DNA from: a candidate division WWE3 bacterium
Lineage (GTDB): Bacteria; Patescibacteriota; 4484-211; GCA-002791395
DNA length: 64,000 nucleotides
Direction of reading: 5' to 3'
NCBI GenBank assembly: GCA_013335095.1
Contig: JAAXWF010000001.1
Span: 150,797 to 214,796 of the forward strand
Numbering within the stretch: position 1 is the stretch's first letter; each line of letters begins with the position of its first letter. This document shows positions 8,829-28,624 of the stretch, piece by piece. The translations under genes were made by a program, and so were the position numbers. Under the pieces are notes generated by a model that made no database searches, had not been told where the DNA came from, and worked only from the letters and a program-made list of their open reading frames with translations.

Positions 8829-9742
8829 GATTCTTTAGTTAACATTCTAAATGCTTCTTCCAAGTTTGTTGTCTGTTTATGCAATTCAGTTAAATATGCT
8901 TGTACAGAAGTTTTTTCCGCGAGCATTTTAAACAGATCGTTCTCCTTATCAGGTGTTGTACGAATTATCAATGAATCTTTACTAGTAACCTCAACACTGA
9001 ATCGGTTCTGGATCGTGCTGACAATTTCAGATTTATTGTCACCTTCAAGCTTGCATTCTATCGTAATCTGAGAAGTGGGTTGTTGTGCTATTTCATTCAA
9101 ATTACCCTGAGCTACGACCTGCCCGCGATTCATTATAACCACCTTCTGACAAATTGCTTCGACTTCTTGAAGAATATGGCTACTTAATAAAATAGTATGA
9201 TCTTTACTCAAGGTACCGATGAGGTTTCGGATTTCTTGCCGTTGGTTAGGATCGAGCCCATCGGTAGGTTCGTCAAGGATTAAGATCTTAGGGTCCCCTA
9301 GCAATGCCTGGGCTAATCCTACTCGCTGGCGAAAACCTTTTGATAGAGATTCGATTGGCTGATTATAAATTTCTTTGATGTTAGTCGCTTCAATAACTTT
9401 AGATTCTTGGGCAAAATACTGGGAAGTGGTCATCCCTTTTAAATCAGCAGCTAATCGTAAACTCTCACTGACGAGAAGATTTGAATAGAGTGGATTATCT
9501 TCGGCCAAATACCCGATGTTCTTTTTCATAGCCGAAGTTACCGATTTCATTGAGCGCCCGTCAATAATAATATCACCATTATCCGGAACAAGTACCCCCG
9601 TAATCATATTTAATGTAGTCGTCTTACCTGCTCCATTTGGGCCGAGCAAACCGACCACCTCTCCCTGATCGACAGTAAAAGAAGCACTATTTACCGCACG
9701 ATGCTTTCCATAAGTTTTTGAAATACTCTTTACTTCAATCAT
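8825..9742 (-). CDS. ABC transporter ATP-binding protein (GldA-like)
   Basis: Walker A GPNGAGKTT, signature LSKGFRQRVGLAQAL, Walker B ILILDEPTDGLD. Confidence 0.85.
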   Translation of the reverse strand: MIEVKSISKTYGKHRAVNSASFTVDQGEVVGLLGPNGAGKTTTLNMITGVLVPDNGDIIIDGRSMKSVTSAMKKNIGYLAEDNPLYSNLLVSESLRLAADLKGMTTSQYFAQESKVIEATNIKEIYNQPIESLSKGFRQRVGLAQALLGDPKILILDEPTDGLDPNQRQEIRNLIGTLSKDHTILLSSHILQEVEAICQKVVIMNRGQVVAQGNLNEIAQQPTSQITIECKLEGDNKSEIVSTIQNRFSVEVTSKDSLIIRTTPDKENDLFKMLAEKTSVQAYLTELHKQTTNLEEAFRMLTKES

Positions 9743-11057
9743 GTTCTTTTAATAATTGGCGTATCCTCTGCTTACTCGATTCGACGCCAGGTTGATCAAA
9801 TGGATTGATATTAAAAAATCCAGCCAAATAGATCGTAACCAACTCGAAGAAGTAGATTAAACCACCAATGTGCACTTCGTCAATCACATCAATCATTATG
9901 CTTATATTCAATTGTCCGGTTTCCGTCAAGACCATGCGTGTTGCTTCCCTTTCTGCCGCCAAAATTTCGCTTAGTAACTTTCCGCCAATAAATGATAATG
10001 ATTGATCTTCTGTATGTTCGACCTCAAGATCATGCTCATATGACGTTACACCTAAAAAGGTAATAGTTTTATCTAATGGCCCTTCATTGTAAAGTTGAAG
10101 TTGAGAGTGTTGATCTGCTGGTCCGATAGAGACAACCGGGGTAAGCCCCACACGAACTTCCTGACCAGTAAGTGTATGTTTCTTGCCTAGACTTTCGGCC
10201 CACAATTGCCGCCACCACCAACCCAATTTCTCGAGTCCATACCCATATGTAAATAAAACATTAATTAACCGATATTGTTCGGTTGCAGCCATATAATGAA
10301 GCCATGCATATTCGAGCGCATCGTTTGAACTCCCCTGTTCGGTAATATGCGCATCCATTTTAGCCGCACCATCTAACAACTCCTGAATATCAATACCGGC
10401 AAATGCAGCAGGGAATAACCCTACTGGAGATAATACAGAGAATCGCCCACCAAGATCTTCCCGCATTCCAAACACAGGGATTTCATGTTCAACTGCGGTT
10501 TGAAACAGGTAATTATTAGTTGTTTCGGTAGTAAATATAAAATAATTTGGCCATGATGTTCCAACTGCCTTTTTATAACGGTCCCGTATGATTTCAAAAA
10601 TTGCAATCGTTTCCATTGTCGATCCAGATTTCGAAACGATATTAAATGCAGTATGCTCCAAATCAATATGTGCTAACAAATTCAAAATAGGTGTAGGGTC
10701 CGTTGTATCACCTAAAAAGTAAACTCGGGAAAAATGTTGATTCTTTTTATGATAGATCGATTTTTTAAGCACACTGTACAACATCTCAGCCCCAAGCAAT
10801 GATCCACCAATACCGACGACAACGAGCGTATCGCATCGTTCTTTTGTCGATTCTACGGTTTCTTTTATATCCTGAATTTGATGAGGAAGCATATACGGTA
10901 ACTGCATGAATGCGATTTGATTACGCTCACGCTGTTCATTAATACGACGATAAATTGATCGCCAATCAGCAATAGAAGTTTTACGAGTAGATTCCGAGAT
11001 ACCGATGGAGCCAATTGAATCTTGATAAAAGTTTGAGAAATCGATCTTTATTGCCAT
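9735..11057 (-). CDS. pgi: Glucose-6-phosphate isomerase
   Basis: PGI family motifs VVGIGGSLLGAEM, VSKSGSTMET and GGRFSVLSPVGLFPAA. Confidence 0.85.
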   Translation of the reverse strand: MAIKIDFSNFYQDSIGSIGISESTRKTSIADWRSIYRRINEQRERNQIAFMQLPYMLPHQIQDIKETVESTKERCDTLVVVGIGGSLLGAEMLYSVLKKSIYHKKNQHFSRVYFLGDTTDPTPILNLLAHIDLEHTAFNIVSKSGSTMETIAIFEIIRDRYKKAVGTSWPNYFIFTTETTNNYLFQTAVEHEIPVFGMREDLGGRFSVLSPVGLFPAAFAGIDIQELLDGAAKMDAHITEQGSSNDALEYAWLHYMAATEQYRLINVLFTYGYGLEKLGWWWRQLWAESLGKKHTLTGQEVRVGLTPVVSIGPADQHSQLQLYNEGPLDKTITFLGVTSYEHDLEVEHTEDQSLSFIGGKLLSEILAAEREATRMVLTETGQLNISIMIDVIDEVHIGGLIYFFELVTIYLAGFFNINPFDQPGVESSKQRIRQLLKEHD

Positions 11058-11137
11058 ATAATTTAAACTGCACGGATTGCACTGACTTTACTATACTACG
11101 TTGAACAATTCCTGAGAATAAAACGTATCAAATTCCA

Positions 11138-11740
11138 TTATGAGGCGATCTCATCTTCATCGCCGATAAGGACGACATGCGGCAGAGCTAATACAGTACG
11201 GATAAAGGCATCTCCACGGTTTTTACGAAAACTAAATTCATCCTCAGTCATTACGGTATAGTTAATCTCATGACCGAGCTTATCTTCATAGGTCCTCACC
11301 AGGCTCTGAAGTACATCAAGCTGAACTTTTCCAACAATTAAGATATCGATGTCATTAGGTCCTGGATGGACATGTTTAATAAACCGCAAAGAGATGGTTG
11401 TGTATTTTATCTTTCCATACTGATCAATATTTTCGAGTAATTCACGACCAAATCCTGTCGTTTTGCCGATCATTCGTAATAGTTCTGAATAAAAGATAAA
11501 TTCTCGTCTGACTTTATAATATAAACGATTACTGCGTTGTTCTGTTGTTAATAAACCAATCGACCGCAATCGTTCAAGCTCTCGACGTACTGCATTGACT
11601 TCTTCATTTACCATGCGCGTGATTTGTCGAACATAATACATTTGGTCGGGATACGGAATAAAGATCTCAAGCAATTTGAGGCGAACACGTGATGTAAATA
11701 GATAATGTAAGACTTTATGCGATTGTGTGACTAAACCCAT
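11138..11740 (-). CDS. Winged-helix regulator with a C-terminal nucleotidyltransferase-like fold (200 aa)
   Basis: N-terminal wHTH-like segment (LKLLEIF...VRQITRMVNEEVNAVRRELERLRSIGLL). C-terminal G.NDIDILIVG resembles the minimal NTase motif. Shares an ATGA overlap with the upstream gene. Confidence 0.4.
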   Translation of the reverse strand: MGLVTQSHKVLHYLFTSRVRLKLLEIFIPYPDQMYYVRQITRMVNEEVNAVRRELERLRSIGLLTTEQRSNRLYYKVRREFIFYSELLRMIGKTTGFGRELLENIDQYGKIKYTTISLRFIKHVHPGPNDIDILIVGKVQLDVLQSLVRTYEDKLGHEINYTVMTEDEFSFRKNRGDAFIRTVLALPHVVLIGDEDEIAS

Positions 11741-12978
11741 TAGTAAATAACCTCCGCGTTATCGGGCACAAGCAATACCCACGTTTGCCCTCGATTCATT
11801 TTAACAGTTTCCCCGCTTTGATTCTTCAAATTGAGTCCACTCTTTCTAGTTAGTTTTTCGTAAGTACCTTTTATCACATTTCCATCCTGCAATATTAAAC
11901 TTTTACCGGACCCAATAACTTTAAACGTAATTCGAGCACTTCCATCGTTTGCTGATGACATCGGAGCGTATAGTATCACGACATTCCGTGCGGTCAATTG
12001 TTGATTTGTTACTGCATCCTTATGTGGACCACTTACAAATGAACGCTTGTATACGTTTTGGCTGGCATCAAAATTCCAAATTGTACTAAAATCATTCGAT
12101 CCACTACCAGTCCAGTTAATCTGAACTTTTTGGACAGCAGCACTTTGATCAGCAGATACGGCTGAATCTTTAAATGGCCATAAATTAATAGAAACCGGTC
12201 CATGCCATCCATTTGATGCAGCAACAGACCACAAATCCTTGGTATTTGAATACGCATTATGGGGAGCGAGTCGATCAGTGACTCTCCAGAATTTCCCACC
12301 TGAAACACCAAGAGATTTTACTCCTTGTTTTTGGATCTCACCCAAAGCATCGGCTTCGGGGTTCGTACTTTGAGCCCCACCAATATGCATAATTAACGAG
12401 TCATCAAGAAAACCTATTAGGTCAAGAAAGTATTTACGAACAGAACGGACGGGTCCGACAACCTCAGGCTCATTTGTGAGATATACACCCGCAAACCGAG
12501 TAATCCCTCCTTCTGCGAGGGTTTCAAAGACAAGATCAGCTTTATCTAAACCAGATTGAGGTCGAGCGTCTGGATGATTCTCCACCATTACAACAAGAGG
12601 TAACTTTTGCATTAATTTTGAATATTCCGAACTAGTAAGTAATACACCGTTCAATGGTGAGTTCTGATTCTTTGGTTCTTCTGGATCTTTTACTTCGACT
12701 GATTTTATTTGATTACCTGACAAAGGAATCGTTGTAATTTGCGATTCTACATTTTCATTTTTGGATTCTTTTTGACTTAATACATATATAAATCCACCAC
12801 CGCCAATTAACACAACGAATAATGCCAAAACACCCAAAGAGAGGGCGATACGTTGGCCATTATCGAGTACGACATCTGGCGAAGCACTGCGCTTAAACAA
12901 ACTCTTAATACGTCCAATCAACCCAACCTTGTGGGTATTTATGATTTGTTTCTCATCAATAACGATATCGTCTTTCAT
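11740..12978 (-). CDS. DUF3048 (YerB-like) membrane-anchored protein
   Basis: N-terminal TM segment. ENHPDARPQSGLDKADLVFETLAEGGITRFAGVY resembles the DUF3048 core. Confidence 0.45.
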   Translation of the reverse strand: MKDDIVIDEKQIINTHKVGLIGRIKSLFKRSASPDVVLDNGQRIALSLGVLALFVVLIGGGGFIYVLSQKESKNENVESQITTIPLSGNQIKSVEVKDPEEPKNQNSPLNGVLLTSSEYSKLMQKLPLVVMVENHPDARPQSGLDKADLVFETLAEGGITRFAGVYLTNEPEVVGPVRSVRKYFLDLIGFLDDSLIMHIGGAQSTNPEADALGEIQKQGVKSLGVSGGKFWRVTDRLAPHNAYSNTKDLWSVAASNGWHGPVSINLWPFKDSAVSADQSAAVQKVQINWTGSGSNDFSTIWNFDASQNVYKRSFVSGPHKDAVTNQQLTARNVVILYAPMSSANDGSARITFKVIGSGKSLILQDGNVIKGTYEKLTRKSGLNLKNQSGETVKMNRGQTWVLLVPDNAEVIY

Positions 12979-13000
12979 AGTGAATTAAAGTAACTTAAGT

Positions 13001-13507
13001 TTATTTATACCCCAACGAGAGGGCCTTGCGAATGGCCTCTTTTTCTTCATCAGAGAGCTCGTAATCAGAGGATTCACCTGCGACTATTGGTTTTGCATAC
13101 ATTCTCGTTTGCTGACGTCCATGCATACTTGAAATAACAACCCCATTATTCCGTTCATCTAGTAGCGCCAACACAAAACTTTGATCCCCTCCCGTATCAT
13201 TATAAGGATTGAACCGAATAATCGACATTTTGGCAAAGTGATTCATTCCATTTTTTTGCACATCAGTAACTATTTTCTCAAAATCTATAATTTTAACCTT
13301 AACCCCTTCGACTCTATTAATATGGTCATTAAGAATCTCCCTTAAATTTTCCTTTCCTGTTTCACCAAATAATGAAGTTGAATAACGGTGCGACTTATAA
13401 ACAAAAAAAGTCAGAACCCCAAGCCAAATAAAACCAATCACAAATAATATGATAAAAAGGATCCCGATATTTGAAGCAAAAAAAGCACCCAACGTAATAC
13501 CATCCAT
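13001..13507 (-). CDS. DUF4446-like small membrane-anchored protein (168 aa)
   Basis: N-terminal TM helix. GGDQSFVLALLDERNNGVVISSMHGRQQTRMYAKPI resembles the DUF4446 core. Size fits the family. Confidence 0.45.
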   Translation of the reverse strand: MDGITLGAFFASNIGILFIILFVIGFIWLGVLTFFVYKSHRYSTSLFGETGKENLREILNDHINRVEGVKVKIIDFEKIVTDVQKNGMNHFAKMSIIRFNPYNDTGGDQSFVLALLDERNNGVVISSMHGRQQTRMYAKPIVAGESSDYELSDEEKEAIRKALSLGYK

Positions 13508-13643
13508 AATTAAGTATGTACTTTATACTCTAATCAAGCTCGTTCTTCAATCAAAGACTAATTCGCCATACAACAGCATCAATCTCACTCGCCTCCCAAA
13601 TGGCTATAAATCAACACAAATCACAATTGACGTTATGCCCAGA

Positions 13644-13675
13644 TCGGTGTATACACGTATACATGAATACACGTA
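13644..13675. promoter_or_regulatory. Candidate LexA operator: GTATACACGTATAC followed by a second ATACACGTA copy spanning the lexA start codon
   Basis: 9-bp direct repeat ATACACGTA at 13651-13659 and 13667-13675. The first copy is embedded in GTATAC-AC-GTATAC (two self-complementary hexamers). It sits in the divergent lexA / DUF4446 intergenic region. Confidence 0.3.
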
Positions 13676-14409
13676 GACAACAGGAGCAGAACTTAACAAA
13701 TCGACAGCTCATAACCCTTGATTTAATAATCAGCGAAATTGAAACAAACGGATTTCCACCGACGGTACGCGAGATACGAGATCGTCTTGGTGTTAATTCA
13801 ATCCGCGGCGCATCTATTCACCTCGATGCGCTTGAGCGCAAAGGATTTATACAAAGATCGAGTAAAGCCCGTGGTATTAAAGTGCTTCGTCGACCAGAAA
13901 CAAATAATGCCCACCTTCAAGAAATACGCATACCGTTAATCGGCCAAGTTCAGGCAGGTCATCCCATTTGGGCCGAAGAGCATTTTGAAAAATATATAAA
14001 CGTTAAAAAATCATACCTCAAGGGATATCAAAAAGCATTTGCTGTCCGAGTTGAGGGGGAAAGCATGATCGAGGCCGGGATTGAGCCGGGAGACATAGCA
14101 CTCATACATCCTACAGAATCGGCGAGCAATGGCGACATCGTAGTTGCGTTAATCGAAGATTCTGTGACATTGAAAAGGTTTCATAAAGTAGACGACTTCA
14201 TTGCCCTACTTCCAGCAAACCCCAATTTCAAACCGATTATTGGTACAGAGTTTAATATACAAGGCAAACTCATTGGATTAATCAAAACTACTGATAATGC
14301 ACTTGGTTCTCTTGAGGATGAGGCGAGCTTAATACCCATAACTCCTCTTTCTGCCTCTGATCGACCCCAGACAATGTTAAAATGGGTGTATGGCACTACA
14401 ACTCATTGA
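13663..14409 (+). CDS. lexA: LexA repressor (S24 peptidase family)
   Basis: N-terminal HTH (LTNRQLITLDLIISEIETNGFPPTVREIRDRLGVNSIRGASIHLDALERKGFIQR). Cleavage-site and catalytic region IPLIGQVQAGHP...VEGESMIEAGIEPGDIAL...KRF. Start is placed at the internal ATG (13663); the track ORF starts at 13600. Confidence 0.85.
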   Translation: MNTRRQQEQNLTNRQLITLDLIISEIETNGFPPTVREIRDRLGVNSIRGASIHLDALERKGFIQRSSKARGIKVLRRPETNNAHLQEIRIPLIGQVQAGHPIWAEEHFEKYINVKKSYLKGYQKAFAVRVEGESMIEAGIEPGDIALIHPTESASNGDIVVALIEDSVTLKRFHKVDDFIALLPANPNFKPIIGTEFNIQGKLIGLIKTTDNALGSLEDEASLIPITPLSASDRPQTMLKWVYGTTTH

Positions 14410-15247
14410 CGGAAAAGAACTATCAAAAACAGTCCTGCAACAAACTCAAAGATTATTACAACAGTCTTCTCGAAAACCTGGACTCGTCAGCGTGGTGATT
14501 GGAAATGATAAACTTTCGCATTTCTTTTCTGACCTAAAAGGCAAAACAGCTCAGAAAGCAGGACTGACATTTCAAAAAGTATCCTACCCCGATAATTTTG
14601 ACCCAGAACGGATATTAACACACATACAACAATTAAATAGCCAACATACAATTCACGGCATTGTAGTGCAATTACCACTTCCTTCTTCTTATAAAAGACA
14701 CGTTATTCTGAAATCAGTACACCCCTATAAAGATGTGGATTGCTTACACCCCAAAAATATGGGGTTAATGCTCGAAGGAAATCCCGTATTTTTACCACCA
14801 GTTGTGTTAGCAGTAATAGATGCAATAAATGCTACAAAAAAATATCCGATTAAATCAATTGAATACCTAAATCAAGAGTATACGGTCCCTGATTTATCAG
14901 GAGTACCTGTTACATTGATTGGTGGAGGAATATTAGTAGGACAACCCCTCGCTACGTATTTACCATTTTTGGGGGCAACAGTAACGCTTGTTAACGAATA
15001 CTCAACAAACACTGACTTCTACCTACGCAATGCACAAATTATTGTAACGGGAACAAACGCTTCAGATGTATTAGAACCGACCGCAGTATCCCCTGGCACA
15101 GTAATACTTCCAGTTGCCGATGATGTAATAATAGAAAAATTTAGTACATATGATGTATTTATGACTCCAAATCCCGGAGGAATCGGTCCACTAACAATCG
15201 CCCACTTGATACGAAATACTGCACTATCCTGCGAAGTACTACATTAA
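14390..15247 (+). CDS. folD: Bifunctional methylenetetrahydrofolate dehydrogenase / cyclohydrolase FolD
   Basis: IDGK, GIVVQLPLP, KDVDC(G) and PGGIGPLTIAHL motifs. Overlaps the lexA 3' end by 20 nt. Confidence 0.9.
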   Translation: MALQLIDGKELSKTVLQQTQRLLQQSSRKPGLVSVVIGNDKLSHFFSDLKGKTAQKAGLTFQKVSYPDNFDPERILTHIQQLNSQHTIHGIVVQLPLPSSYKRHVILKSVHPYKDVDCLHPKNMGLMLEGNPVFLPPVVLAVIDAINATKKYPIKSIEYLNQEYTVPDLSGVPVTLIGGGILVGQPLATYLPFLGATVTLVNEYSTNTDFYLRNAQIIVTGTNASDVLEPTAVSPGTVILPVADDVIIEKFSTYDVFMTPNPGGIGPLTIAHLIRNTALSCEVLH

Positions 15248-17144
15248 ATTTCCACAAAATAAAGATAATCACCCCACTAATCATAAGTAAGAGACCATCG
15301 ATAATAACCCAAGAACCTGTTTTGGGTAGTAGCGAAGTGATACGATCACGATCAGTAGCGAGTCCTTTTACTTGTCCTGAGACTTTTATGTCATCACTAG
15401 ACCTCGGTAAAATTCTCACTTCATCTTTATATTTTGATAGTATACCGAGCACCGCAAGCGAATCATTCTTTTTAATCATAGGGCGTTTGAAACCAGTAGA
15501 ATCCTTAATATAAATCTTTACTTCGTTACCTTTCCCAGATTTTAACCAAAAGGTATTACCACTGAGTTTAGTAACAGTGCCTGTAGTACTAATAAGTCGA
15601 CCAATATTTTTCTCATCAGCATATTCTTGTATGTTAATAGGAAGCAACGAAATCTGTTCAGTTGAATACTCAGGATCCTCAGAAGCATAAAGATAATGTT
15701 CGCCTAAACTCATTCTGATCTCACCTTGAACACGAATAACTTCATTCAATGAAAATGACTGGTCTTTATTTTTAAACAGTATCTTTATCCCCCCTGATGA
15801 ATCCTCAATATATGCGATACCTTGACCAAATACACCCGTAGGGGAAGTGATTATGCCTTCAACGCTTGCGACATCTCCAAGAGTTAAATTCTTTACCTTT
15901 TCAATTGTTTGAACACCCAGCTCATCCTCTATGTAATATTCATCCGTCTCAATAGCCTCGTCAGATTCGATTTCGTCCTCCACAGACCGAGTGGCCGCAA
16001 CGTGAATAACGTCGGAGGTATACGTTGATGTGGAGTTTACCAACTTTATCTTTATTCTAATTGAGTAGTCTCCAGGCAGATTCTCCGGCTTAATCCGTGC
16101 TGTAATTGAAAAAGGTAAATCGCCCATGTCGTTGGTAAGCATTGGTAAGTTAGCCCAGGCACCATTCCATGAGACATACTCTCCTGACTCACTTTTAGTT
16201 TGCCCCTCGTACCAGTGAACAAGGTCAGATGTTGCCTCTGCTTTAATCTGGACCTGTATACCTTTTGATAAATTTTCAATAATACCGCGAATATGGAAAT
16301 CCTTCCCGATTTCAATACTTGAAACGGGATCCGAAATCTTGATTTGAGCTAATGACACCGTTGGGGTAATAGTCGGCGCGGGCGTAACAGTAATAACACT
16401 AGGTAAAGGCTCTACAGTTGGCTTGTTGATGATTGACGGCTCAATAGTGATCGTTGGAACAATAGGTTCAGTCGGAGAAATAACTATTGTTGGTTCAATT
16501 AATGGTTGATCAAAAAACAAATGATTTTGTAGACCTGGCGTAAATGGTTGGGCAATTATCCAATCAGCCACAGAATGTTCACTAGTTGAAACACGTTCAA
16601 GGCTTTGTCCGAGCTTAATAGTATCGGAATCTTGCCACCCACATTCTACGCAACCGACTTGAGACCAAATACCAAAGGTATTTAATTGGATTAATACATC
16701 TTTGCTTGATGAAAAAGTACCATCAGCATTCGACCACACGACCGCGTCGACAACAACTCCATTATCTTCTAGTCGGATTACATTATCTGTTCCTACTAAA
16801 CCAGTATCGGTAGAATAAACATCCCAATAATTATTTCCCCCTTTTCCTGTGGCATTACTTTCATCGATACCGCCGCTATCATTTAAATGAACTACAATAA
16901 TATCACCTGGCACTACTGTTAAATTAGAAAATACTTTGATTACAGATTGGACTCCTTCAATCACTTGAACACCAATGAGATCTCGATTAGCGGTTGCTAT
17001 TAATTCTATCCAGTCGTTATCTTCCTTCATTGCGACTTCAGAAATTAATACCGCGCTTGGTATGGTTGCGGCAAATACCAATGATCTAAGGCAAAATATA
17101 ATTATTATGCCCGCCAATAAGATATAACCTTGCATATTTTTCAT
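15159..17144 (-). CDS. Cell-surface protein: signal peptide, lamin-tail domain (LTD), Pro/Thr-rich linker, OB-fold-like repeats, C-terminal LPKTG sorting signal
   Basis: LTD-like ISEVAMKEDNDWIELI...VVPGDIIVVH. PT-rich linker PTEPIVPTITIEPSIINKPTVEPLPSVITVTPAPTITPTV. C-terminus LPKTG followed by a 21-aa hydrophobic stretch and a basic tail. Start is placed at the Met preceding the signal peptide (the track starts at 17174). Confidence 0.55.
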   Translation of the reverse strand: MKNMQGYILLAGIIIIFCLRSLVFAATIPSAVLISEVAMKEDNDWIELIATANRDLIGVQVIEGVQSVIKVFSNLTVVPGDIIVVHLNDSGGIDESNATGKGGNNYWDVYSTDTGLVGTDNVIRLEDNGVVVDAVVWSNADGTFSSSKDVLIQLNTFGIWSQVGCVECGWQDSDTIKLGQSLERVSTSEHSVADWIIAQPFTPGLQNHLFFDQPLIEPTIVISPTEPIVPTITIEPSIINKPTVEPLPSVITVTPAPTITPTVSLAQIKISDPVSSIEIGKDFHIRGIIENLSKGIQVQIKAEATSDLVHWYEGQTKSESGEYVSWNGAWANLPMLTNDMGDLPFSITARIKPENLPGDYSIRIKIKLVNSTSTYTSDVIHVAATRSVEDEIESDEAIETDEYYIEDELGVQTIEKVKNLTLGDVASVEGIITSPTGVFGQGIAYIEDSSGGIKILFKNKDQSFSLNEVIRVQGEIRMSLGEHYLYASEDPEYSTEQISLLPINIQEYADEKNIGRLISTTGTVTKLSGNTFWLKSGKGNEVKIYIKDSTGFKRPMIKKNDSLAVLGILSKYKDEVRILPRSSDDIKVSGQVKGLATDRDRITSLLPKTGSWVIIDGLLLMISGVIIFILWKFNVVLRRIVQYFVSSGRLLVDRFLRDLES

Positions 17145-17279
17145 ATATAACTCAATATTTAAGGATGATAACAAAATATTTTAAAATTGCAAGTTTTTTT
17201 AAAGTAACTAAGAGAAAGTAACCAACTTATTTCTAAATACAATATGCATTACCACCAACCCCTAGCCTTGAAGTTTCAT

Positions 17280-18503
17280 CTACTTTACATGCCAGTAAAT
17301 CGTTTTAGTACCATCCGGGTGGTCAATACGAATACCTTTACCTACGGTTCCGGTTAAAGAACACGGCTGACTATCACTTACCGCATATGCTACACCCTCA
17401 GCTGCGGCTAAAATTGGAGCACCGTCGCCAATAGTACTATCAACCATATCGACCCCATTATGACCAGGTATGCCAAAGTTAGCCTGATACCACGCTCGTG
17501 TAGAAGGATCATTGAAACCTTGTGTTATTGTCGGATCATTTAGGGGCCAACCGAATGCACCACTACTCAATTTGCCCATAGGGTCTACGGCTACATTATT
17601 TATGTAATATCCAAAATGTAGGTGAGGACCGGTGGAACAGCCAGTATTACCAACCCGGGCAATGATGTCCCCTTTTTTAACGTTTCCAAGTTTTGTCCCT
17701 AAATTAGTTAAGGCAGCTCGGATTGCCCGAATCTCTTCTTCAACCTGAGCTAATAATCTTTGATACTGATTTTCTTCATTCTTTGTTACCGTAAGCAACC
17801 AATTCTTTGTAGATTGCTGATTCCGTAAACTTTGTTCTTGGCTCTGTAATAATACATGGTGGTCTTGCAATTGAGCCTTCAATGTTTCTTTCTCTGTTTT
17901 GAGTGTTTCTAACTGCTGCTTTTGGACCTCAAAGTTAGATTTATTATCATGCATTTGACTGAGAAGACGATTATCCTCTTCTTGTAATGCCCGCAAGTAT
18001 GCACTTTCTAGGATCATTTCCCGTACATTTCCAGGCTTAAGGATAAAACCGGTACCTGCGGTTTCAAACTGATAACGGGCTCGAATTCTCGCCGAAAGGG
18101 TGGTGTTCAAATCATTTATCGACTCGGTAACATTTTCCAATTTTTCTGTAAGTTTGATGATATCGTTATTAACCCCGTCCAATTGGCCTTCTGTGGTTAT
18201 TATTTGATTTCTAGTATCTTCCTGCTCCAACTGGGTTAAGCGAATCTGATTATCTAAATACGTAACTTGGTTAGCTAGAGTTTTTTCCTGTTTCTGAGCA
18301 TCAACAATCTTCCGCTGTAACTCAGTTTTCTTTGTTTCTCGATCTTTTAACTCGTCGTATTTTTGTTGAGACGTATTTTGCCCAATAGGCAATAGAGTAT
18401 TTTCTCCGTCAATCCCCAAATGAGCCTCTACCGTCAAAGGCATTGTGGATAAAAAAAGAGAAGATATGATAAATACAGCACAACTAAGTATTCTTTTTTT
18501 CAT
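17280..18503 (-). CDS. EnvC/PcsB-like coiled-coil M23 metallopeptidase (FtsEX partner)
   Basis: Signal peptide, about 220 aa of coiled coil, then M23 motifs GNTGCSTGPHLHF and HNGVDM...IDHPDGTKTIYWHV. It is immediately downstream of ftsE-ftsX. Confidence 0.75.
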   Translation of the reverse strand: MKKRILSCAVFIISSLFLSTMPLTVEAHLGIDGENTLLPIGQNTSQQKYDELKDRETKKTELQRKIVDAQKQEKTLANQVTYLDNQIRLTQLEQEDTRNQIITTEGQLDGVNNDIIKLTEKLENVTESINDLNTTLSARIRARYQFETAGTGFILKPGNVREMILESAYLRALQEEDNRLLSQMHDNKSNFEVQKQQLETLKTEKETLKAQLQDHHVLLQSQEQSLRNQQSTKNWLLTVTKNEENQYQRLLAQVEEEIRAIRAALTNLGTKLGNVKKGDIIARVGNTGCSTGPHLHFGYYINNVAVDPMGKLSSGAFGWPLNDPTITQGFNDPSTRAWYQANFGIPGHNGVDMVDSTIGDGAPILAAAEGVAYAVSDSQPCSLTGTVGKGIRIDHPDGTKTIYWHVK

Positions 18504-18505
18504 AG

Positions 18506-19387
18506 CTATACCTTTAAATGCTGCCTCGTTGCTAAATAACTAACCACGGCGGTAAATAGTACGCCGATGCCAGTTGTATAACCCCAAACAAGATGGATAA
18601 GATTCTCGTGTGGTGGGAACAGTTCAACGGTGGCAATAAAGTGATCCGTAAATGATTGAACATACGGTAACACCCATACCATAATAGCACTTGCATATGT
18701 GGCACTGAATAGAGCGAATAAAACCCCATCAAAGATGAACGGCCAGCGAATATACCAGGAACCAGCCCCAACGAGACGCATAATTTCAATTTCACGACTA
18801 AATGTATTTATATTGTTGGTTACGACAATCAAGATGATTCCAATTGAAATTAATAATAGAACACCTAATAAGACCCCACCACCAAATCGAACCGCATCCG
18901 TCCAACTTGTTAATTCATCGACTAAATCTTGCTGGAATATAACTCTCTCGACAAATTCATTATTCTGAAACTGCTTAGCAATATTGGATAAATATTCGAC
19001 TTGTCGAGCCGAGATATCAAGAGAGGCTGGCAGAATATCCGGCGTTACAAACTCTAATAACTCGGGTTCGTTCTTATGTTGTGCCTTATAAATTTCATAT
19101 GCCTGTTCTTTTGTTATATAAGAAACAGATTCGATAAGAGAATCTTTCTCAAGTTCACGCTTAATCTGTTCAATTTGATCAGATGTAGTCTCATCTTTAA
19201 AGAAAACGGTAACCTGAGGTTGATTCTCTAAATAGGTCAAAATACGATCACTCGCAATTGATACAATCGCAAAGAGCTGCCCCATCAGCATAAGAACAGT
19301 CAAAATCATAATGATCAAAAAAGATTGCCAGACATTCCTTGTGATGTGTTGAAAGGTATATTTTATTACTCTTATTATTTGGTTCAT
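18506..19387 (-). CDS. ftsX: Cell division permease FtsX
   Basis: Four-TM topology with a large extracytoplasmic loop between TM1 and TM2, adjacent to ftsE. Confidence 0.85.
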   Translation of the reverse strand: MNQIIRVIKYTFQHITRNVWQSFLIIMILTVLMLMGQLFAIVSIASDRILTYLENQPQVTVFFKDETTSDQIEQIKRELEKDSLIESVSYITKEQAYEIYKAQHKNEPELLEFVTPDILPASLDISARQVEYLSNIAKQFQNNEFVERVIFQQDLVDELTSWTDAVRFGGGVLLGVLLLISIGIILIVVTNNINTFSREIEIMRLVGAGSWYIRWPFIFDGVLFALFSATYASAIMVWVLPYVQSFTDHFIATVELFPPHENLIHLVWGYTTGIGVLFTAVVSYLATRQHLKV

Positions 19388-19391
19388 ATTT

Positions 19392-20063
19392 TTATCGTTG
19401 TTCCGTTAATCGACCGTCCTTGATGACGACAACTCGCCCTTTAGTCCGTTTTACCAAAGCTTCATCATGAGTGGCCATAATAACTGTAGTTCCCCATTCA
19501 TTTATCTGTTTCAATAAGTCTACAATCTGTTTAGTGTTCTGGCTATCAAGGTTACCTGTTGGTTCATCGGCTAACAGAACTTCGGGTTCAGTAGCTAACG
19601 CTCGAGCAATAGCAACTCGTTGTTGTTCGCCAGTAGATAATTCTTGAGGAAATGCGCGTTCCCGATGTAATAGACCGACGCGATCAAGTAAGTACGGTAC
19701 AATCTCTTTAACTTCGCTCGGTTTTTTACCAACGACTTCGAGAGCAAATGCAATATTTTCAAACACGGTTTGCTGCCGCAAAAGCTTAAAATCCTGGAAA
19801 ACCATCCCGATTTGACGACGTAAATGAGGAATCTTGCGGCGGGGTAACCGAACGATATTGTCATCCTTAAACCAAATATCACCTTCACTCGGAATATCTT
19901 CTCGAATAAGAAACTTTAGTAATGTCGTCTTACCAGCCCCCGAGGGGCCAATAAGAAATACAAAATCGCCCTGGTTTATCTGTAATGAGACTTCTTCAAA
20001 AGCAGTGACACCAGAACGCTTATACCATTTTGATACGCTATCAAATTTAATCATCATATTCAT
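19392..20063 (-). CDS. ftsE: Cell division ATP-binding protein FtsE
   Basis: Walker A GPSGAGKTT, signature LSTGEQQRVAIARAL, Walker B LLADEPTGNLD. 223 aa. Confidence 0.9.
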   Translation of the reverse strand: MNMMIKFDSVSKWYKRSGVTAFEEVSLQINQGDFVFLIGPSGAGKTTLLKFLIREDIPSEGDIWFKDDNIVRLPRRKIPHLRRQIGMVFQDFKLLRQQTVFENIAFALEVVGKKPSEVKEIVPYLLDRVGLLHRERAFPQELSTGEQQRVAIARALATEPEVLLADEPTGNLDSQNTKQIVDLLKQINEWGTTVIMATHDEALVKRTKGRVVVIKDGRLTEQR

Positions 20064-20108
20064 TATAGAGAAAGGTTCTAATGAAGCAAATATAATCGTG
20101 GATTAATT

Positions 20109-20816
20109 TTATTGAGCAGGACTAGATTCGGTTGGCGCAACACTCTCTTGGGGTACATCGATTGTTTGAGTTGGCGCAATCGGGGTAACGCCAGAAGCTG
20201 AAACGAAATCATCATAACTGGTCACTCCAGAAAAACGTTTACCATTAATAAAAAACGTTGGTGTAGAATTAACCTTCAACGAGTTCGCAGCACTCCGATC
20301 ACTGTCGACAACACTACGCACGTCATTTGAAACATAATCTGCCAAAAATTGGTCTTTGTTTAGACCAAGATCAGCGCCAAACTTATCATAAAAATACTCT
20401 CCACTGACCTCTACGGCCGACCAAGTACTCTGATTAGTGAATAACCAGTCATGAACCTCCCAAAACTTACCTTGATGATCGGCAGCTTCTGCTGCATATG
20501 CAGCCGCATTAGAGTTTTGATGCTGAGGTAGTGGGAAATGACGAAATACCAATTTAACTTGGTCACGATAATCACTCATGAATTTATCGACGATTGGCTG
20601 CGCGGCTTTACATGAAGGGCATTGAAAATCAGAAAATTCAACAATTGTTGTCGTTGCATTACTATTACCTTGGGTAGGGCGAGACTCCCCAACCGTTTGA
20701 TCAACGGCGACAATATCTGGTCGATCAAAGACACGCGCAACAAATACGATTGCCGCGACCAATAGAATACTGCCTAAGATTACACTAAGAGATAATTTAA
20801 TATCATTTCCTTGCAC
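20109..20816 (-). CDS. DsbA-family thiol:disulfide oxidoreductase (membrane-anchored)
   Basis: N-terminal TM segment, thioredoxin-fold active site FQCPSCK, DsbA-like helical insertion. Confidence 0.8.
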   Translation of the reverse strand: MQGNDIKLSLSVILGSILLVAAIVFVARVFDRPDIVAVDQTVGESRPTQGNSNATTTIVEFSDFQCPSCKAAQPIVDKFMSDYRDQVKLVFRHFPLPQHQNSNAAAYAAEAADHQGKFWEVHDWLFTNQSTWSAVEVSGEYFYDKFGADLGLNKDQFLADYVSNDVRSVVDSDRSAANSLKVNSTPTFFINGKRFSGVTSYDDFVSASGVTPIAPTQTIDVPQESVAPTESSPAQ

Positions 20817-20845
20817 GCAACTATATTAGCATAAACTGCAAAGAG

Positions 20846-21922
20846 TTAATGTCTTTTCACAATCGATTTACTATCATGACGACGTAAAATCATGAAGTGC
20901 ATCAGCCAGATAATAATAACAACATAAGTACCTGACCACGTGCCGCCAAATTCCAATACACGAACAAAACTATGTACTCCAGCAAGAAAAAATATAGCCG
21001 GAGGGACAACAGTAGCTAAGATCGAAGCCGTTGGAGAAATATTGAAGTCATATAAAAAAGTGTCCTTTGTTGCATACGCAATGGTAAGAAAGGACGTAAT
21101 TATCGCTAAAGCACCAAAGATTGCCCCACCATAAACTACCCATGAGGGCAAATATATGAGGAGTCCGGCAATAGCTTCTTCGCTAGTTGAGGGACCAGAA
21201 ACGCCGGTTACCATTAACTGAAACAGTAAATAAACGATTGCCGGGATGATCGAACCGATAATAACGGCGAGATAAAACGATCGAACATTCATCTTTGCTG
21301 ACTTAAGCATCCGACCCATCTCAGGGATCACTGAGTATCCCATCAATGCATTTAACATAACTCCATAAGGGGCTATTAAAGTTATTCTAGAAGGAATTAC
21401 TTCGGGTAAACTCAGATTAGAATAACGCATGTATGGAAAACCGATGCATATAAGGACCAAGATTACGATTAGCATCGCACCAGTTAATAGGCTCTCTGTC
21501 GTAGCTAATAATTTTAAATTTATCGTTAATGTAACAACCACAAAGATTATCGACAGTAATGAAAAGAGGACTGAGGTCGTAGGATCACCCACCAAAATCG
21601 ATAGGAATTTGCCCATTCCTATAATGTATGCAAGTAGAGATCCCCAGTATCCCACCAAAATAAATATTCCGGTAATTGATTTAAATTTTGGAGAAATATA
21701 ATGTGCTGCATAACCAGCAAGTTGTTGGGGCTTTTTAAAATCAGCCGCAATGATTGATGCATAGGCAATGTTTGTAAAGGTAACTAAAATAGTTGTGATT
21801 AATAACCAAAGTAGACCGATCGGATATCCGGATTGTGCAGTAACATAAGGAATAGCAAAGATACCTGCGCCAATAGTAGTACCAACGTGCATGGCTATAG
21901 CAAGCCAAAATATACGGGGCAT
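20846..21922 (-). CDS. Amino acid permease (aromatic amino acid / APC-type transporter)
   Basis: Polytopic protein with N-terminal GTTIGAGIFAIPYV, typical of Tyr/Trp and APC-type permeases. Confidence 0.6.
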   Translation of the reverse strand: MPRIFWLAIAMHVGTTIGAGIFAIPYVTAQSGYPIGLLWLLITTILVTFTNIAYASIIAADFKKPQQLAGYAAHYISPKFKSITGIFILVGYWGSLLAYIIGMGKFLSILVGDPTTSVLFSLLSIIFVVVTLTINLKLLATTESLLTGAMLIVILVLICIGFPYMRYSNLSLPEVIPSRITLIAPYGVMLNALMGYSVIPEMGRMLKSAKMNVRSFYLAVIIGSIIPAIVYLLFQLMVTGVSGPSTSEEAIAGLLIYLPSWVVYGGAIFGALAIITSFLTIAYATKDTFLYDFNISPTASILATVVPPAIFFLAGVHSFVRVLEFGGTWSGTYVVIIIWLMHFMILRRHDSKSIVKRH

Positions 21923-21961
21923 GTTGTTTATTGTAGCAGAAAAGTTACAAGACTGGGTTGA

Positions 21962-22945
21962 TTACTTACTCACTATATTTTTAACCGAACCGGACAAATA
22001 CGAATTAATATTCTCAATTGTAGTAAGTAAAATACGTTCTACTGCTTCTTTACTATTGAATGCATTATGGGGTGTTACTAAAACATTATCCATCTTCATC
22101 AGCAGTCGATCAGCTGACGCAGACTCTGATTCTGATGCGGTCGAAGGCGCTTTCAATACTTCTTCGTCTTCGAGGACATCGAGCCCGGCACCAGCGACTT
22201 TTCCAGAATTCAATCCATTTACCAAGGCTTCAGTATTAATCAAGGCTCCTCTTGCGGTATTAATGATATACACACCTTTTCGCATTTGTGCGAACTGGTC
22301 ATGAGAAAGAATATGTTTCGTTGCTTCATTTAAGGGCAAATGGAGGGTAATTACGTGTGCTGTTGATAATAGTTCGGCAAGCTCAACATAGCTGAATCCG
22401 ATTGTTTTCGCTAATTCAGGTTTTTGGAACATATCAAAAACGACTACATCCATTTCAAAGCTTCGCGCCATCCGAGCAACGTGCATACCAATATGCCCCC
22501 CACCAACTAATCCGATACGCTTACCTTTAAGATCCCAACCGCGTAGACCTTCATAGTTAAAAGAACCTTCACGAATTCGATCGAAACTAGGTCTTAATTG
22601 CCGTGATAACGCGAGCAAGAGGGCCATTGTATGTTCCGCAACCGTATTTTCTCCATAAAAAGGCACGTTTGTTACTGGAATCCCTTTCTCTCGCGCATAA
22701 TCGAGTTCAATATGATCATATCCTGTAGATCGTGTACAAATAAATTTTAATGAAGGAAAGCGGTTAATATCTGCCGCTTTGACTGGAGTACCGACAAATA
22801 CACATAGAACTCCGATATCAGAAAAATCTGAGGGATCTTTTTGATATTGATCGTTTGAAACAAATATCAATTCATGGCCAGGTAAATTTTGTTCAAAAAA
22901 ATCACGTTGCCAATCTTCATTTATTTCGGTAAATAAAATTTTCAT
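21962..22945 (-). CDS. D-isomer-specific 2-hydroxyacid dehydrogenase, NAD-binding
   Basis: GLVGGGHIGMHVARMA...D Rossmann motif and a catalytic-domain His/Glu/Arg pattern. Confidence 0.85.
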   Translation of the reverse strand: MKILFTEINEDWQRDFFEQNLPGHELIFVSNDQYQKDPSDFSDIGVLCVFVGTPVKAADINRFPSLKFICTRSTGYDHIELDYAREKGIPVTNVPFYGENTVAEHTMALLLALSRQLRPSFDRIREGSFNYEGLRGWDLKGKRIGLVGGGHIGMHVARMARSFEMDVVVFDMFQKPELAKTIGFSYVELAELLSTAHVITLHLPLNEATKHILSHDQFAQMRKGVYIINTARGALINTEALVNGLNSGKVAGAGLDVLEDEEVLKAPSTASESESASADRLLMKMDNVLVTPHNAFNSKEAVERILLTTIENINSYLSGSVKNIVSK

Positions 22946-22947
22946 AT

Positions 22948-23943
22948 CTAATCTTCCCCAAGCTCTCGAGGGACGAGCTGAGAGTGCTTTTCTAGTATCG
23001 CATCTAAGGCCGATAACGTCAACAAATCTGTTGTAGCCCCAGGTGTTGCAACAGAGTGACCACTCTGAACAGAGGCTAAACGCAATGATTCCAATTCGCT
23101 TCGTCCATGGGCAATACCGCTTAAGTACCCTCCTGCAAATGCATCTCCTGCCCCTGTTGTATCAACCACTTTTGAAGAGAACGACTCCATATGGTAATAA
23201 TTTTTCCCATCACAAAAATAAGATCCATTTTTCCCATCTGTAATGGTAATTCGCTTGACGCCTTTGCGTACAAATGTTTCTAACAGCCATTGAACATCAA
23301 ATAAATCATCGGTATGTTCGGCATCGCTGCGCAATAAAATACTGGCCTCCTCTTTATTAACGATTACAGTATGGCATGCATGCATTAACTCGCCAATAGC
23401 GGAAAATCCGGCATCAATCTCTACTCGACCAGGATTGTAGACGACCTGTACATCCGGATGATATTGCAGCCATTTTTTCATCGCGCGATGGATCAAATGG
23501 AAATCTTTATATCCTAAAGAACTAACATAGAGCCAATCAATGTTATCCAACGTTTCTGGAAAACGATATATAGGTGTGGAATGGTAAGACAAGATCGTGC
23601 GGTCATGGCCGTAACTTAATATCACCGAGCTATTACTCTCTCCACTGCGGGCCGTATAGGTTAAATCATATCCTTTTGTAACCAATTGAGTATAGATCAT
23701 CTGGCCGAGCTCATCTTCACCGGTTTGTGAAATTAACTTAACGCCATGGCCTGTGGCTATAAGCCCTGCCCCAACATTTGGAGCGTTACCGCCTAATGAA
23801 ATAAATCGTTTGTCTACTGAAATTTTAGTCGGAAATGGTAAACATAATTCTTTTCCATTTTCCGATGGTTGTTGAATATGACCAGCAGAAAGCAAGAAGA
23901 TGATATCAATTGTAGTTAGTCCAATGCAGGCAATGCGGGCCAT
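22948..23943 (-). CDS. PfkB-family carbohydrate kinase
   Basis: PfkB signature VDTTGAGDAFAGGYLSG and an N-terminal GG dipeptide region. Confidence 0.8.
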   Translation of the reverse strand: MARIACIGLTTIDIIFLLSAGHIQQPSENGKELCLPFPTKISVDKRFISLGGNAPNVGAGLIATGHGVKLISQTGEDELGQMIYTQLVTKGYDLTYTARSGESNSSVILSYGHDRTILSYHSTPIYRFPETLDNIDWLYVSSLGYKDFHLIHRAMKKWLQYHPDVQVVYNPGRVEIDAGFSAIGELMHACHTVIVNKEEASILLRSDAEHTDDLFDVQWLLETFVRKGVKRITITDGKNGSYFCDGKNYYHMESFSSKVVDTTGAGDAFAGGYLSGIAHGRSELESLRLASVQSGHSVATPGATTDLLTLSALDAILEKHSQLVPRELGED

Positions 23944-23993
23944 AAAAATTGATTAGTAATTCTAGAATACCACGTAATCATCAAGAGTAAAAA

Positions 23994-24962
23994 CTACTCA
24001 ATATAGTTCATAGATTCTTTTACTGCTAACTGAATTCGGTCTTTAGTGAGACCATATTCGGTCATTAGTTCATTAGGCTCGCCGGATTGACCAAATAAAT
24101 CTAAAATCCCCAACCGCTTCATCCGTACAGGGAAATGTTCACCCAGAAATTCAGCGATGGCCGAACCCAACCCTCCCGCGACTTGGTGTTCTTCAACAGT
24201 AACAACTCGTTTTGTTTTGCGCACTGAAGAAAGTACGGTATTTCCATCGAGAGGTTTGATGGTAGATACATTGATAACTTCAACCGAGATCGATTGGCTC
24301 ATAAGTTCATGGGCTACAACTAAACAATCATACACAAGACTCCCGCAGGCAAAGATGGTTACATCGGAGCCCTCTGCCAATACTTCAGCGCGACCGATTT
24401 CAAAAGGAGAAGACTCAGAGGTAAATACCGTGGTTGCAGCACGGTTCAAGCGAATATATACCGGAGTGGGTTGAACCAGAGCGGCAATAGTAGCCTTCTT
24501 TGCTTCAATAGCATCGCAAGGGACAACGACAGTCATATTCGGCAATACACGCATTAATGCAATATCTTCGAGCGATTGATGAGTAGCGCCATCTGGTCCA
24601 ACCGACAACCCGGCATGGTGTCCGGCGATTTTAACCGGAACGTTGTTATAACAAACGGTGGTTCTAATTTGCTCCCAATTACGACCAGGAGAAAAGGTTG
24701 CATACGATGCGATGTACGGAATTTTTCCGGCTGCAGCTAAACCAGAAGCTACCGTAACTAAATTTTGCTCAGCAACGCCGATCTGAATAAAACGTTCAGG
24801 AAATTCATCTTTAAACGCCTGCATTCGAGTAGATTCAGTAAGGTCAGCACACAGACCGACAACATTAGGATTACGCCGAGCGGCCTCAACGAGTCCCTCA
24901 CCAAACCCATCTCGAATCGGCTTTTGGTCAGATGATGAAAGTGTTATATGTTCGACAAGCAT
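23994..24962 (-). CDS. Transketolase, C-terminal subunit
   Basis: Pyrimidine-binding and C-terminal transketolase domains (GFGEGL, QIGVAEQNLV, GPDGATHQS). Confidence 0.9.
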   Translation of the reverse strand: MLVEHITLSSSDQKPIRDGFGEGLVEAARRNPNVVGLCADLTESTRMQAFKDEFPERFIQIGVAEQNLVTVASGLAAAGKIPYIASYATFSPGRNWEQIRTTVCYNNVPVKIAGHHAGLSVGPDGATHQSLEDIALMRVLPNMTVVVPCDAIEAKKATIAALVQPTPVYIRLNRAATTVFTSESSPFEIGRAEVLAEGSDVTIFACGSLVYDCLVVAHELMSQSISVEVINVSTIKPLDGNTVLSSVRKTKRVVTVEEHQVAGGLGSAIAEFLGEHFPVRMKRLGILDLFGQSGEPNELMTEYGLTKDRIQLAVKESMNYIE

Positions 24963-24963
24963 T

Positions 24964-25821
24964 TTATTGGTGTTCAGAGTCTATTCTCCCACTCAGTGTT
25001 CTTAATTCAGATAATGCTTCGACAGCCTCTGCAGCAGAGGGCGCCTTACCATGCCATTCAGGAAGAAATTCCATAAATTCCACACCTTTCCCGGGAATAG
25101 TATAGGCAATGATCACAACTGGTTTACCGACGATGGACCGAGCTTCTTGCAATGCATCATGTATAACCCCAATATTATGCCCATCGATCTCAAGAACATG
25201 CCAATTAAACGCCTCGTATTTTGCCCGTAATAATTCTAACGGCATGACATCTTCGGTATGTCCATCAATTTGAATATTATTACGATCAATAATGTACGTG
25301 AGATTATCTAATTTATATTTTGCTGCAAACATAACCGCTTCCCACGTATTACCTTCATCATGCTCTCCGTCACTCCCCAGGCAGTACACCTGCCACTTTT
25401 GTTTATCCATACGGGCAGCATATGCCATGCCTGCTGACTGACTTAATCCAGAACCGAGAGGACCAGATGTTGTCTCAATTCCAGGCAACGTCCCTCTGTG
25501 CGGATGACCTTGTAAACGGCTCCCAAGCTTACGTAATGTTGATAATTCGTCGAGAGGGAAAAAGCCAGCCCGAGCTAATGTTGCATATAAAACCGGACAA
25601 ATATGTCCGTTTGAAAGAACAACACGATCGCGATCTGGACATGTCGGATTACTTGGGTCTACGTTTAATACACCGCTAAAATACAACGTCGTAAAGATGT
25701 CGGCCATACCTAAAGACCCTGCAGTATGGCCGCTTTTTGCGGTGACCAACATCTTTACTACGTCTTGTCGAATTTGATTGGCTATATCGACTAATTGTTG
25801 CTCCGATTTAATTTCAGTCAT
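24964..25821 (-). CDS. Transketolase, N-terminal (TPP-binding) subunit
   Basis: GHTAGSLGMADI, GSDGE...EG and TPP-binding motifs. Directly upstream of the C-terminal subunit gene (split tkt). Confidence 0.9.
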   Translation of the reverse strand: MTEIKSEQQLVDIANQIRQDVVKMLVTAKSGHTAGSLGMADIFTTLYFSGVLNVDPSNPTCPDRDRVVLSNGHICPVLYATLARAGFFPLDELSTLRKLGSRLQGHPHRGTLPGIETTSGPLGSGLSQSAGMAYAARMDKQKWQVYCLGSDGEHDEGNTWEAVMFAAKYKLDNLTYIIDRNNIQIDGHTEDVMPLELLRAKYEAFNWHVLEIDGHNIGVIHDALQEARSIVGKPVVIIAYTIPGKGVEFMEFLPEWHGKAPSAAEAVEALSELRTLSGRIDSEHQ

Positions 25822-25827
25822 AAAAAA

Positions 25828-26418
25828 TCACCGCGAGTTTACCAACTGATTTTCTTGAGTCATTGCAGCAATAGCCTTTACTTTATCGGCGGCCTCGGTT
25901 GGTGAATCAACAATATGATATACCATTAATTCCTCAGGACGAAGGCGCATATTTGCACCAAAGGCCTCAAGAATTTCATGCCACCATCGACCATATAAAA
26001 TTAGATGTTTATGGTGACCAAAGTGAAGTCGAGCCAGTCCCCAAGCCATTCCGAATTCAGAGATAGTACCTGTACCACCACTAAAAATTATGAATACATC
26101 GCCCTTCTCAATTAGGGTTAATGTTCGTTCCAAGTAATTTTGGGTGACAATCTCTTCATCGAGCTTATTAAGCTTATCTCGACCTTCAAACATTAATATC
26201 GCATCCTGAGATTCTGGATAAAGAGTAACACCGATTGTGTGTCCATTAGCGGCCTTCGCTCCTAGACTCGAAGCACGCATAACACCTGGCCCCCCACCAT
26301 TCACGATGGTAAACCCAGATAATGCTAACAATCGCGAGGTTTCAAATGCGGCAAGATATTCTTCGTCACCGTCTTGTGAATCCGCGTATCCAAATACGGT
26401 TACATTTTTTACGTTCAT
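25828..26418 (-). CDS. LOG-family protein (TIGR00730 Rossmann-fold nucleotide-binding / cytokinin riboside 5'-monophosphate phosphoribohydrolase-like)
   Basis: VNGGGPGVMRAS and FSGGTGTISEF motifs characteristic of LOG/YvdD. Confidence 0.8.
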   Translation of the reverse strand: MNVKNVTVFGYADSQDGDEEYLAAFETSRLLALSGFTIVNGGGPGVMRASSLGAKAANGHTIGVTLYPESQDAILMFEGRDKLNKLDEEIVTQNYLERTLTLIEKGDVFIIFSGGTGTISEFGMAWGLARLHFGHHKHLILYGRWWHEILEAFGANMRLRPEELMVYHIVDSPTEAADKVKAIAAMTQENQLVNSR

Positions 26419-27077: not shown

Positions 27078-27516
27078 TAATCTCGATTTCTTCTAAACGT
27101 CGTCGATATCGAGCTTCTTCAGAAAATACCGTAGTTAAAAAAGCATGCACCATTGCGAGACTCTCTTCGGGTGCGGTGAAGTCCGCGGCAATCGCTAGCA
27201 CGTTAATATCATCATCTTCACGCCCCGCAGCAACTTGGGCAACATTAATGCCGAGGCCACAACGAATACCATCAAACTTGTTCGCTGCTATAGAAATACC
27301 AATACCAGATCCACAAATAAGTACCGCAAAATCAATAGATTCTTTTTCCATGGTTTGAGCTGCAGCTTCGGCAAAATCAGTATAATCGTCACGCTGATCA
27401 ATAGAATGCGCTCCAACGTCAACCCATTCAACAGAGTCAGACTCGAGCACAATCTCGGATTTTATTTGTTCTTTTAGGTTATATCCGCGATGGTCAGCAC
27501 CAATTATTACTTTCAT
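27052..27516 (-). CDS. rpiB: Ribose-5-phosphate isomerase B
   Basis: MKVIIGADHRGYNLK...LICGSGIGISIAANKFDGIRC (RpiB/LacAB family). Start moved to the internal ATG (the track starts at 27570). Confidence 0.85.
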   Translation of the reverse strand: MKVIIGADHRGYNLKEQIKSEIVLESDSVEWVDVGAHSIDQRDDYTDFAEAAAQTMEKESIDFAVLICGSGIGISIAANKFDGIRCGLGINVAQVAAGREDDDINVLAIAADFTAPEESLAMVHAFLTTVFSEEARYRRRLEEIEIIEEQKEDE

Positions 27517-28586: not shown

Positions 28587-28624
28587 AAGATTCTGCTGAA
28601 TCTACAAGGTATATAATAGATCCA

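Follow-up and report, generated by a model that had tools for sequence, protein, structure and literature searches.

Evidence for a circularly permuted M23 peptidase domain in a probable FtsEX partner of a candidate division WWE3 bacterium

FtsEX-bound hydrolases and the window protein

EnvC of Escherichia coli and Vibrio cholerae (PDB 6tpi, 8tzl and 4bh5) is a coiled-coil LytM protein that is bound by FtsEX, and its LytM domain has the canonical order of the M23 family. PcsB of Streptococcus pneumoniae, RipC of mycobacteria and CwlO of Bacillus subtilis likewise combine an FtsX-docking coiled coil with an active hydrolase domain. This report concerns a related protein of 407 residues, encoded by the third gene of an ftsE-ftsX operon in a candidate division WWE3 bacterium of the Candidate Phyla Radiation (CPR). 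The gene lies in a stretch of 64,000 nucleotides (hereafter the window; positions 150,797 to 214,796 of contig JAAXWF010000001.1, assembly GCA_013335095.1). The protein is read as a secreted FtsEX partner that consists of a coiled coil and a naturally circularly permuted zinc M23 endopeptidase, and the probability of this reading as a whole is put at about 0.75. An initial annotation of the window, made from the sequence, had proposed the same interpretation, which the analysis supports.

EnvC has a LytM domain with no catalytic activity of its own, which serves to activate the amidases AmiA and AmiB. In degenerate LytM factors, such as EnvC and NlpD, the zinc-binding and catalytic residues have been lost. 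The window protein differs from EnvC in that its domain is permuted and keeps every catalytic residue. In PcsB, RipC and CwlO the catalytic domain is a cysteine peptidase of the CHAP or NlpC/P60 type, whereas that of the window protein is an M23 zinc peptidase. CPR bacteria, like the bacteria that carry PcsB, RipC and CwlO, are thought to be without an outer membrane.

Counterparts of the same length and architecture exist among coiled-coil M23 proteins of canonical order. They are found in some Parcubacteria (L050 and L056), with no ftsEX within the flank, and in several Bacillota (L053, L062, L075, L077 and L078), where the gene follows ftsE-ftsX as it does in the window. These proteins run HxxxD...Y-x-H...HxH and end after ..DPxxYL, whereas the window protein has HxH in front and ends in Y-W-H-x-x.

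Swapped order of catalytic residues has a precedent in cell-wall peptidases, as circularly permuted NlpC/P60 families (YaeF/poxvirus G6R and LRAT-like; Anantharaman and Aravind 2003) are described in the summary given in PMC6403190, although their fold and chemistry differ from those of M23. Circular permutation is also documented for the broader hybrid barrel-sandwich motif (PMC11515920). No permuted M23, LytM or EnvC domain was found in open-access papers and preprints, in line with the initial annotation, which knew of no such description, and an earlier report may exist elsewhere.

Domain order of the M23 protein

The M23 gene and the parts of its product are as follows.

17280..18503, minus strand: gene for the coiled-coil and circularly permuted M23 protein, 407 residues plus stop codon (open reading frame, profile and structure-sequence alignments)
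18423..18503, minus strand: putative N-terminal signal peptide or membrane anchor, residues 1-27, MKKRILSCAVFIISSLFLSTMPLTVEA (read from the sequence)
17706..18377, minus strand: predicted coiled-coil region, residues 43-266, with helices 43-71, 76-152, 160-240 and 244-266 (full-length AlphaFold model)
17580..17705, minus strand: first M23 segment, residues 267-308, corresponding to the last third of the canonical domain, at its C-terminus (positions 94-135 of a hidden Markov model, HMM, of canonical domains only; Pfam positions 61-96 of 96)
17550..17579, minus strand: linker of 10 residues, 309-318, MGKLSSGAFG, between the old C-terminus (..VDP) and the old N-terminus (WP..) (read from the sequence)
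17283..17549, minus strand: second M23 segment, residues 319-407, corresponding to the first two thirds of the canonical domain, at its N-terminus (HMM positions 7-86; residues 41-91 of 9gy1_A)

All peptide strings on which the initial annotation was built are present in this open reading frame. The first M23 segment is fused directly to the last coiled-coil helix and reads LGNVKKGDIIARVGNTGCSTGPHLHF...VDP; it contains GNTGCSTGPHLHF with H294 and H296 (codons 17616..17624) as well as C289. The second segment runs WPL...HNGVD...DSQPC...IDH...YWHVK and carries H348 and D352 (in HNGVD, 17448..17462), C381 and H405 (in the terminal YWHVK, 17289..17291). The motif set of M23 is thus complete, comprising HxxxD, HxH and the third catalytic histidine (Y-x-H), and the claim that all metal ligands are present holds. 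Residue roles in these motifs are assigned by homology to LytM and lysostaphin. The chain stops 2 residues past H405, at the point where a normal M23 domain would go on to HxH, just as had been proposed.

The reversed order itself, with the HxH segment preceding the HxxxD segment, was recovered by three kinds of alignment. The Pfam profile PF01551 (Peptidase_M23) matched with 62.3 bits against a cut-off of 28.7 (E=5.1e-17) in two partial stretches of swapped order, the better of which placed profile positions 61-96 of 96 on residues 273-308, and the native protein gave no single colinear match. In phmmer comparisons with solved M23 structures, residues 347-406 aligned to the first half of the domain (9gy1_A, 41-91) and residues 275-309 to the second half (102-137). 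The custom HMM, built from 57 M23 domains in canonical order only, matched with positions 94-135 at residues 273-313 and then with positions 7-86 at residues 313-406. Under the same HMM, canonical proteins gave one colinear match and a tandem-domain protein gave two full matches.

Un-permutation in silico, in which residues 263-316 were placed behind residues 317-407, restored a single colinear Pfam match to positions 3-96 of 96, with 72.8 bits compared with 66.0 for the native domain. The un-permuted sequence was also matched by the custom HMM over positions 6-135 in one piece, and its alignments to PDB sequences were likewise single and colinear. The two M23 pieces are complementary and without overlap, with about 7 profile positions lost at the breakpoint, which is the signature of circular permutation. 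E-values of 1e-14 to 1e-18 for each half exclude chance. The colinear order HxxxD, Y-x-H, HxH does not occur in the window protein, which by these alignments is an M23 homologue with permuted connectivity and not a canonical member of the family.

Conservation of the permuted order

The same permutation with the same breakpoints occurs in hundreds of independent assemblies drawn from NCBI, ENA, JGI and Logan. A domain-only search returned 12 full-coverage matches (E 7e-62 to 2e-10), all with identical order. A full-length search gave 432 clusters at E<=1e-5, and among the best 120 of these every cluster had HxH about 50 residues ahead of HxxxD and an end of the form Y-W-H-x-x. An exhaustive profile search of 1.84 billion representatives gave 291 clusters (50% identity) at E<=1e-30; among the best 150 of them, 149 were permuted. 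The lone exception, P0314, is a protein of 717 residues in which a BlaR1-like membrane protein is followed by two tandem canonical M23 domains, and the permuted profile matched across their junction. Three further candidates (L050, L056 and L065) were rejected as full-length permuted matches. They have canonical order, and their misleading appearance arose when BLAST aligned the coiled coil and the N-terminal half colinearly and skipped the moved segment.

In total, 277 permuted sequences were collected, and 219 of them stop exactly 2 residues past the last catalytic histidine. The linker from ..DP to WP.., defined by a regular expression, was measurable in 249 permuted homologues and has a modal length of 10 residues (147 of 249).

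Loci with the permuted gene belong to WWE3, Woykebacteria, Berkelbacteria, Saccharibacteria and unclassified Patescibacteria and, within Microgenomates, to Daviesbacteria, Curtissbacteria, Levyibacteriota and Gottesmanbacteria. The order ftsE-ftsX-permuted M23 is kept in 19 of 21 related CPR loci, and in the other two the upstream region is cut off by the contig end. The names given to permuted proteins in databases are generic, such as 'peptidoglycan DD-metalloendopeptidase family protein', 'CwlO-like' or 'EnvC family'.

The CPR-type ftsE-ftsX-permuted-M23 operon was also found in records titled 'Candidatus Nanoarchaeia archaeon' or 'uncultured Gammaproteobacteria' (L001, L004, L006, L007, L010, L015, L018 and L081/L082, the last pair from assembly GCA_036382695.1, DASVHF01). 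L081 also carries a bacterial rpsL-rpsG-fusA cluster, and L015 is a 615 kb 'chromosome'. Since these records carry a CPR-type operon, their taxonomic labels are probably wrong.

Short paralogues (P0003-P0005) consist of a signal peptide, a proline-rich linker and the permuted domain, without a coiled coil. P0004 shares an assembly with an ftsEX-linked copy and is itself not adjacent to ftsEX. The occurrence of the permuted domain without the coiled coil indicates that it is an autonomous module.

Conservation of the catalytic residues bears on whether the domain is an enzyme. The permuted domain might instead be a non-catalytic regulator that activates a separate amidase, as E. coli EnvC does with its degenerate LytM domain. 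This alternative is unlikely, because H294, H296, H348, D352 and H405, the five zinc and catalytic residues, are invariant in an alignment of 73 full-length relatives that are 32-72% identical to the window protein. In addition, the NCBIfam model for the murein hydrolase activator EnvC (NF008644) scored 15.2 bits, far below its equivalog cut-off of 270. Given the intact catalytic residues, a directly active endopeptidase, similar to PcsB or RipC, is favoured over an amidase activator of the E. coli EnvC type.

Predicted structure

The AlphaFold2 model of the domain (monomer, 13 sequences) had a predicted local distance difference test score (pLDDT) of 91.7 and a predicted template modelling score (pTM) of 0.83, with both segments at 94-97. 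The full-length AlphaFold model (73 sequences) reached pLDDT 90 and pTM 0.75. It shows a long helical hairpin (76-152 and 160-240) with flanking helices, followed by a beta domain, so that the coiled coil of about 220 residues proposed ahead of the M23 segments is matched by the predicted helices of residues 43-266. At the N-terminus, a helix at residues 2-18 is followed by a low-confidence stretch at residues 23-37; the sequence of residues 1-27 suggests a signal peptide or membrane anchor. The two segments are predicted to refold into an M23-like body that keeps the metal-binding and catalytic residues.

A Foldseek search of the PDB with the domain model returned no M23 match and nothing significant, and it is not usable as support. 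With the full-length model, the best matches were 8tzl_E (EnvC in the V. cholerae FtsEX-EnvC complex), 6tpi_A (EnvC bound to the FtsX periplasmic domain) and 4cgk (PcsB), all of them weak (best E = 9.3e-4; template modelling scores 0.37/0.43); the RipA N-terminal domain (6ewy) was also among the top structural matches. The permutant is well supported by sequence and comparison and moderately supported by structural modelling.

The models also bear on the alternative that the protein is an obligate domain-swapped dimer, with the HxH segment of each chain paired to the HxxxD segment of its partner. Coiled-coil proteins often dimerise, PcsB is a dimer in the crystal 4cgk, and the protein was modelled as a monomer. 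Such a dimer is nevertheless quite improbable, as the monomer model is compact and confident by its pTM, the linker is conserved at about 10 residues, and the short secreted paralogues carry the domain without any coiled coil.

A pair of cysteines may hold the two segments of the permuted domain together. Canonical domains usually have R or F at the position of C289, and C381 belongs to a short insertion in the other segment. Where C289 is present (122 members), the count of cysteines in that other segment is always odd; of the 13 members that lack C289, 6 have no cysteine there. This co-variation suggests that a C289-C381 disulfide likely staples the two segments.

A gene for a DsbA-like thioredoxin-fold protein with a CPSC motif (20109..20816, minus strand) lies immediately upstream of ftsE, which is suggestive given the C289/C381 pair. 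As a conserved partner for the cysteine pair it was rejected, since its adjacency to ftsE was not found in the other 80 loci.

Evolutionary origin

The most economical origin of the permuted domain would be a tandem duplication of M23 followed by loss of the outer halves. Tandem M23 proteins occur naturally, and P0314 is an example of an arrangement that could yield such a permutant. The same arrangement lends some colour to a different reading, in which the two segments are decayed remnants of a tandem duplication with no functional domain, because the permuted order resembles the junction of such a tandem. This reading is very improbable. The pieces are exactly complementary without overlap, the catalytic residues are invariant despite the divergence of the relatives, the breakpoints and the C-terminal end are kept in the 277 collected sequences, and the structure is predicted with confidence. 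An artefact of assembly or sequencing, for instance a rearrangement confined to the gene, has in its favour only that the window comes from a metagenome-assembled genome, and it was rejected because the same order and breakpoints are conserved across hundreds of independent assemblies and no significant DNA repeats were seen within the gene.

Aligned over 108-148 residues, the un-permuted domain of the window protein shares 37-46% identity with canonical M23 domains, among them those of L056 and L065. In a neighbour-joining tree of un-permuted and canonical domains, exact monophyly of the permuted sequences was recovered in 4 bootstraps out of 100; the main permuted clade comprised 52 of 62 sequences. 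In about 70-80% of bootstraps, a group of the Berkelbacteria/Saccharibacteria type, which has the same breakpoints, was placed apart from this clade. Because two groups with the same breakpoints were not resolved as a single clade, more than one origin within the CPR was considered.

Canonical ftsEX-linked M23 proteins resemble the window protein weakly in the coiled-coil region (E 5e-7 to 1e-4). This similarity is only suggestive, since composition can inflate such scores and the database held 57 sequences.

The operon and a proposed mechanism

The M23 gene is the third gene of a tight ftsE-ftsX-M23 operon on the minus strand. The two genes upstream of it are as follows.

19392..20063, minus strand: ftsE, ABC-transporter ATPase, first gene of the operon (Pfam ABC_tran, E=7.9e-36)
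18506..19387, minus strand: ftsX, membrane protein with an extracellular domain at residues 58-149 (Pfam FtsX_ECD, E=1.4e-21; FtsX, E=3.7e-10)

The gap between ftsE and ftsX is 4 bases, and that between ftsX and the start codon of the M23 gene is 2 bases. Scans for an operon promoter and terminator performed at chance level and were not used. The extracellular domain of FtsX is presumed to be the docking site of the coiled coil.

By analogy with EnvC, PcsB, RipC and CwlO, the coiled coil would dock on the extracellular domain of FtsX and would be driven into another conformation when FtsE hydrolyses ATP. This change would switch on the cleavage of septal peptidoglycan cross-links, leading to separation of the daughter cells. 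The permutation would shift the attachment of the coiled coil from the canonical N-terminus to a loop beside the catalytic Y-x-H histidine, and through this new attachment the motion of the coiled coil may, speculatively, be coupled more directly to the active site.

In the permuted protein, the last helix of the coiled coil continues into the beta-strand that in canonical domains comes after the Y-x-H histidine. This fusion of helix to strand, together with a chain end 2 residues past the histidine, means that the coiled coil could move the histidine strand directly. A bolder and doubtful proposal is therefore that the permutation rewires FtsEX control, with a pull or twist of the coiled coil by FtsE ATP hydrolysis repositioning the active-site histidine strand, and that the permutation may also have arisen more than once in the CPR. 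If true, gating would be distinct from the restraining-arm occlusion of EnvC.

M23/LytM peptidases, such as lysostaphin, LytM, EnvC, ShyA and DipM, count among the most thoroughly studied enzymes of the cell wall, and they are under development as antibacterials. A natural permutant would indicate that the M23 fold tolerates new termini beside the active site and would offer a ready template for engineering. The permuted protein is the likely septal hydrolase of much of the CPR, whose division is largely uncharacterised. Its features suggest that in these bacteria, as in Gram-positive ones, FtsEX has an active endopeptidase under its direct control and not an amidase activator. The permuted domain is split in two by profile searches and was missed by Foldseek, so that its annotation is generic and it may escape structure-based surveys.

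Other genes in the window

An open reading frame of 671 residues (15159..17174, minus strand) lies directly downstream of the M23 gene. Its C-terminal end combines LPKTG (15315..15329), a hydrophobic stretch and basic residues, a sortase-type sorting signal for the cell wall, here in a CPR (WWE3) genome; beyond this, the only match was a weak one to DUF5689. In a Berkelbacteria locus (L016), the M23 gene likewise has a related segment downstream of it.

No tRNA or tmRNA genes were found by ARAGORN in the whole window (1..64000). Transketolase is split into two adjacent genes on the minus strand, 23994..24962 and 24964..25821, of which one encodes the N-terminal thiamine-diphosphate domain and the other the pyrimidine-binding and C-terminal domains. 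A LexA-like repressor (13600..14409, plus strand; LexA_DNA_bind and Peptidase_S24) has an N-terminal extension of about 29 residues in the open reading frame as called, and its stop overlaps the start of folD at 14390.
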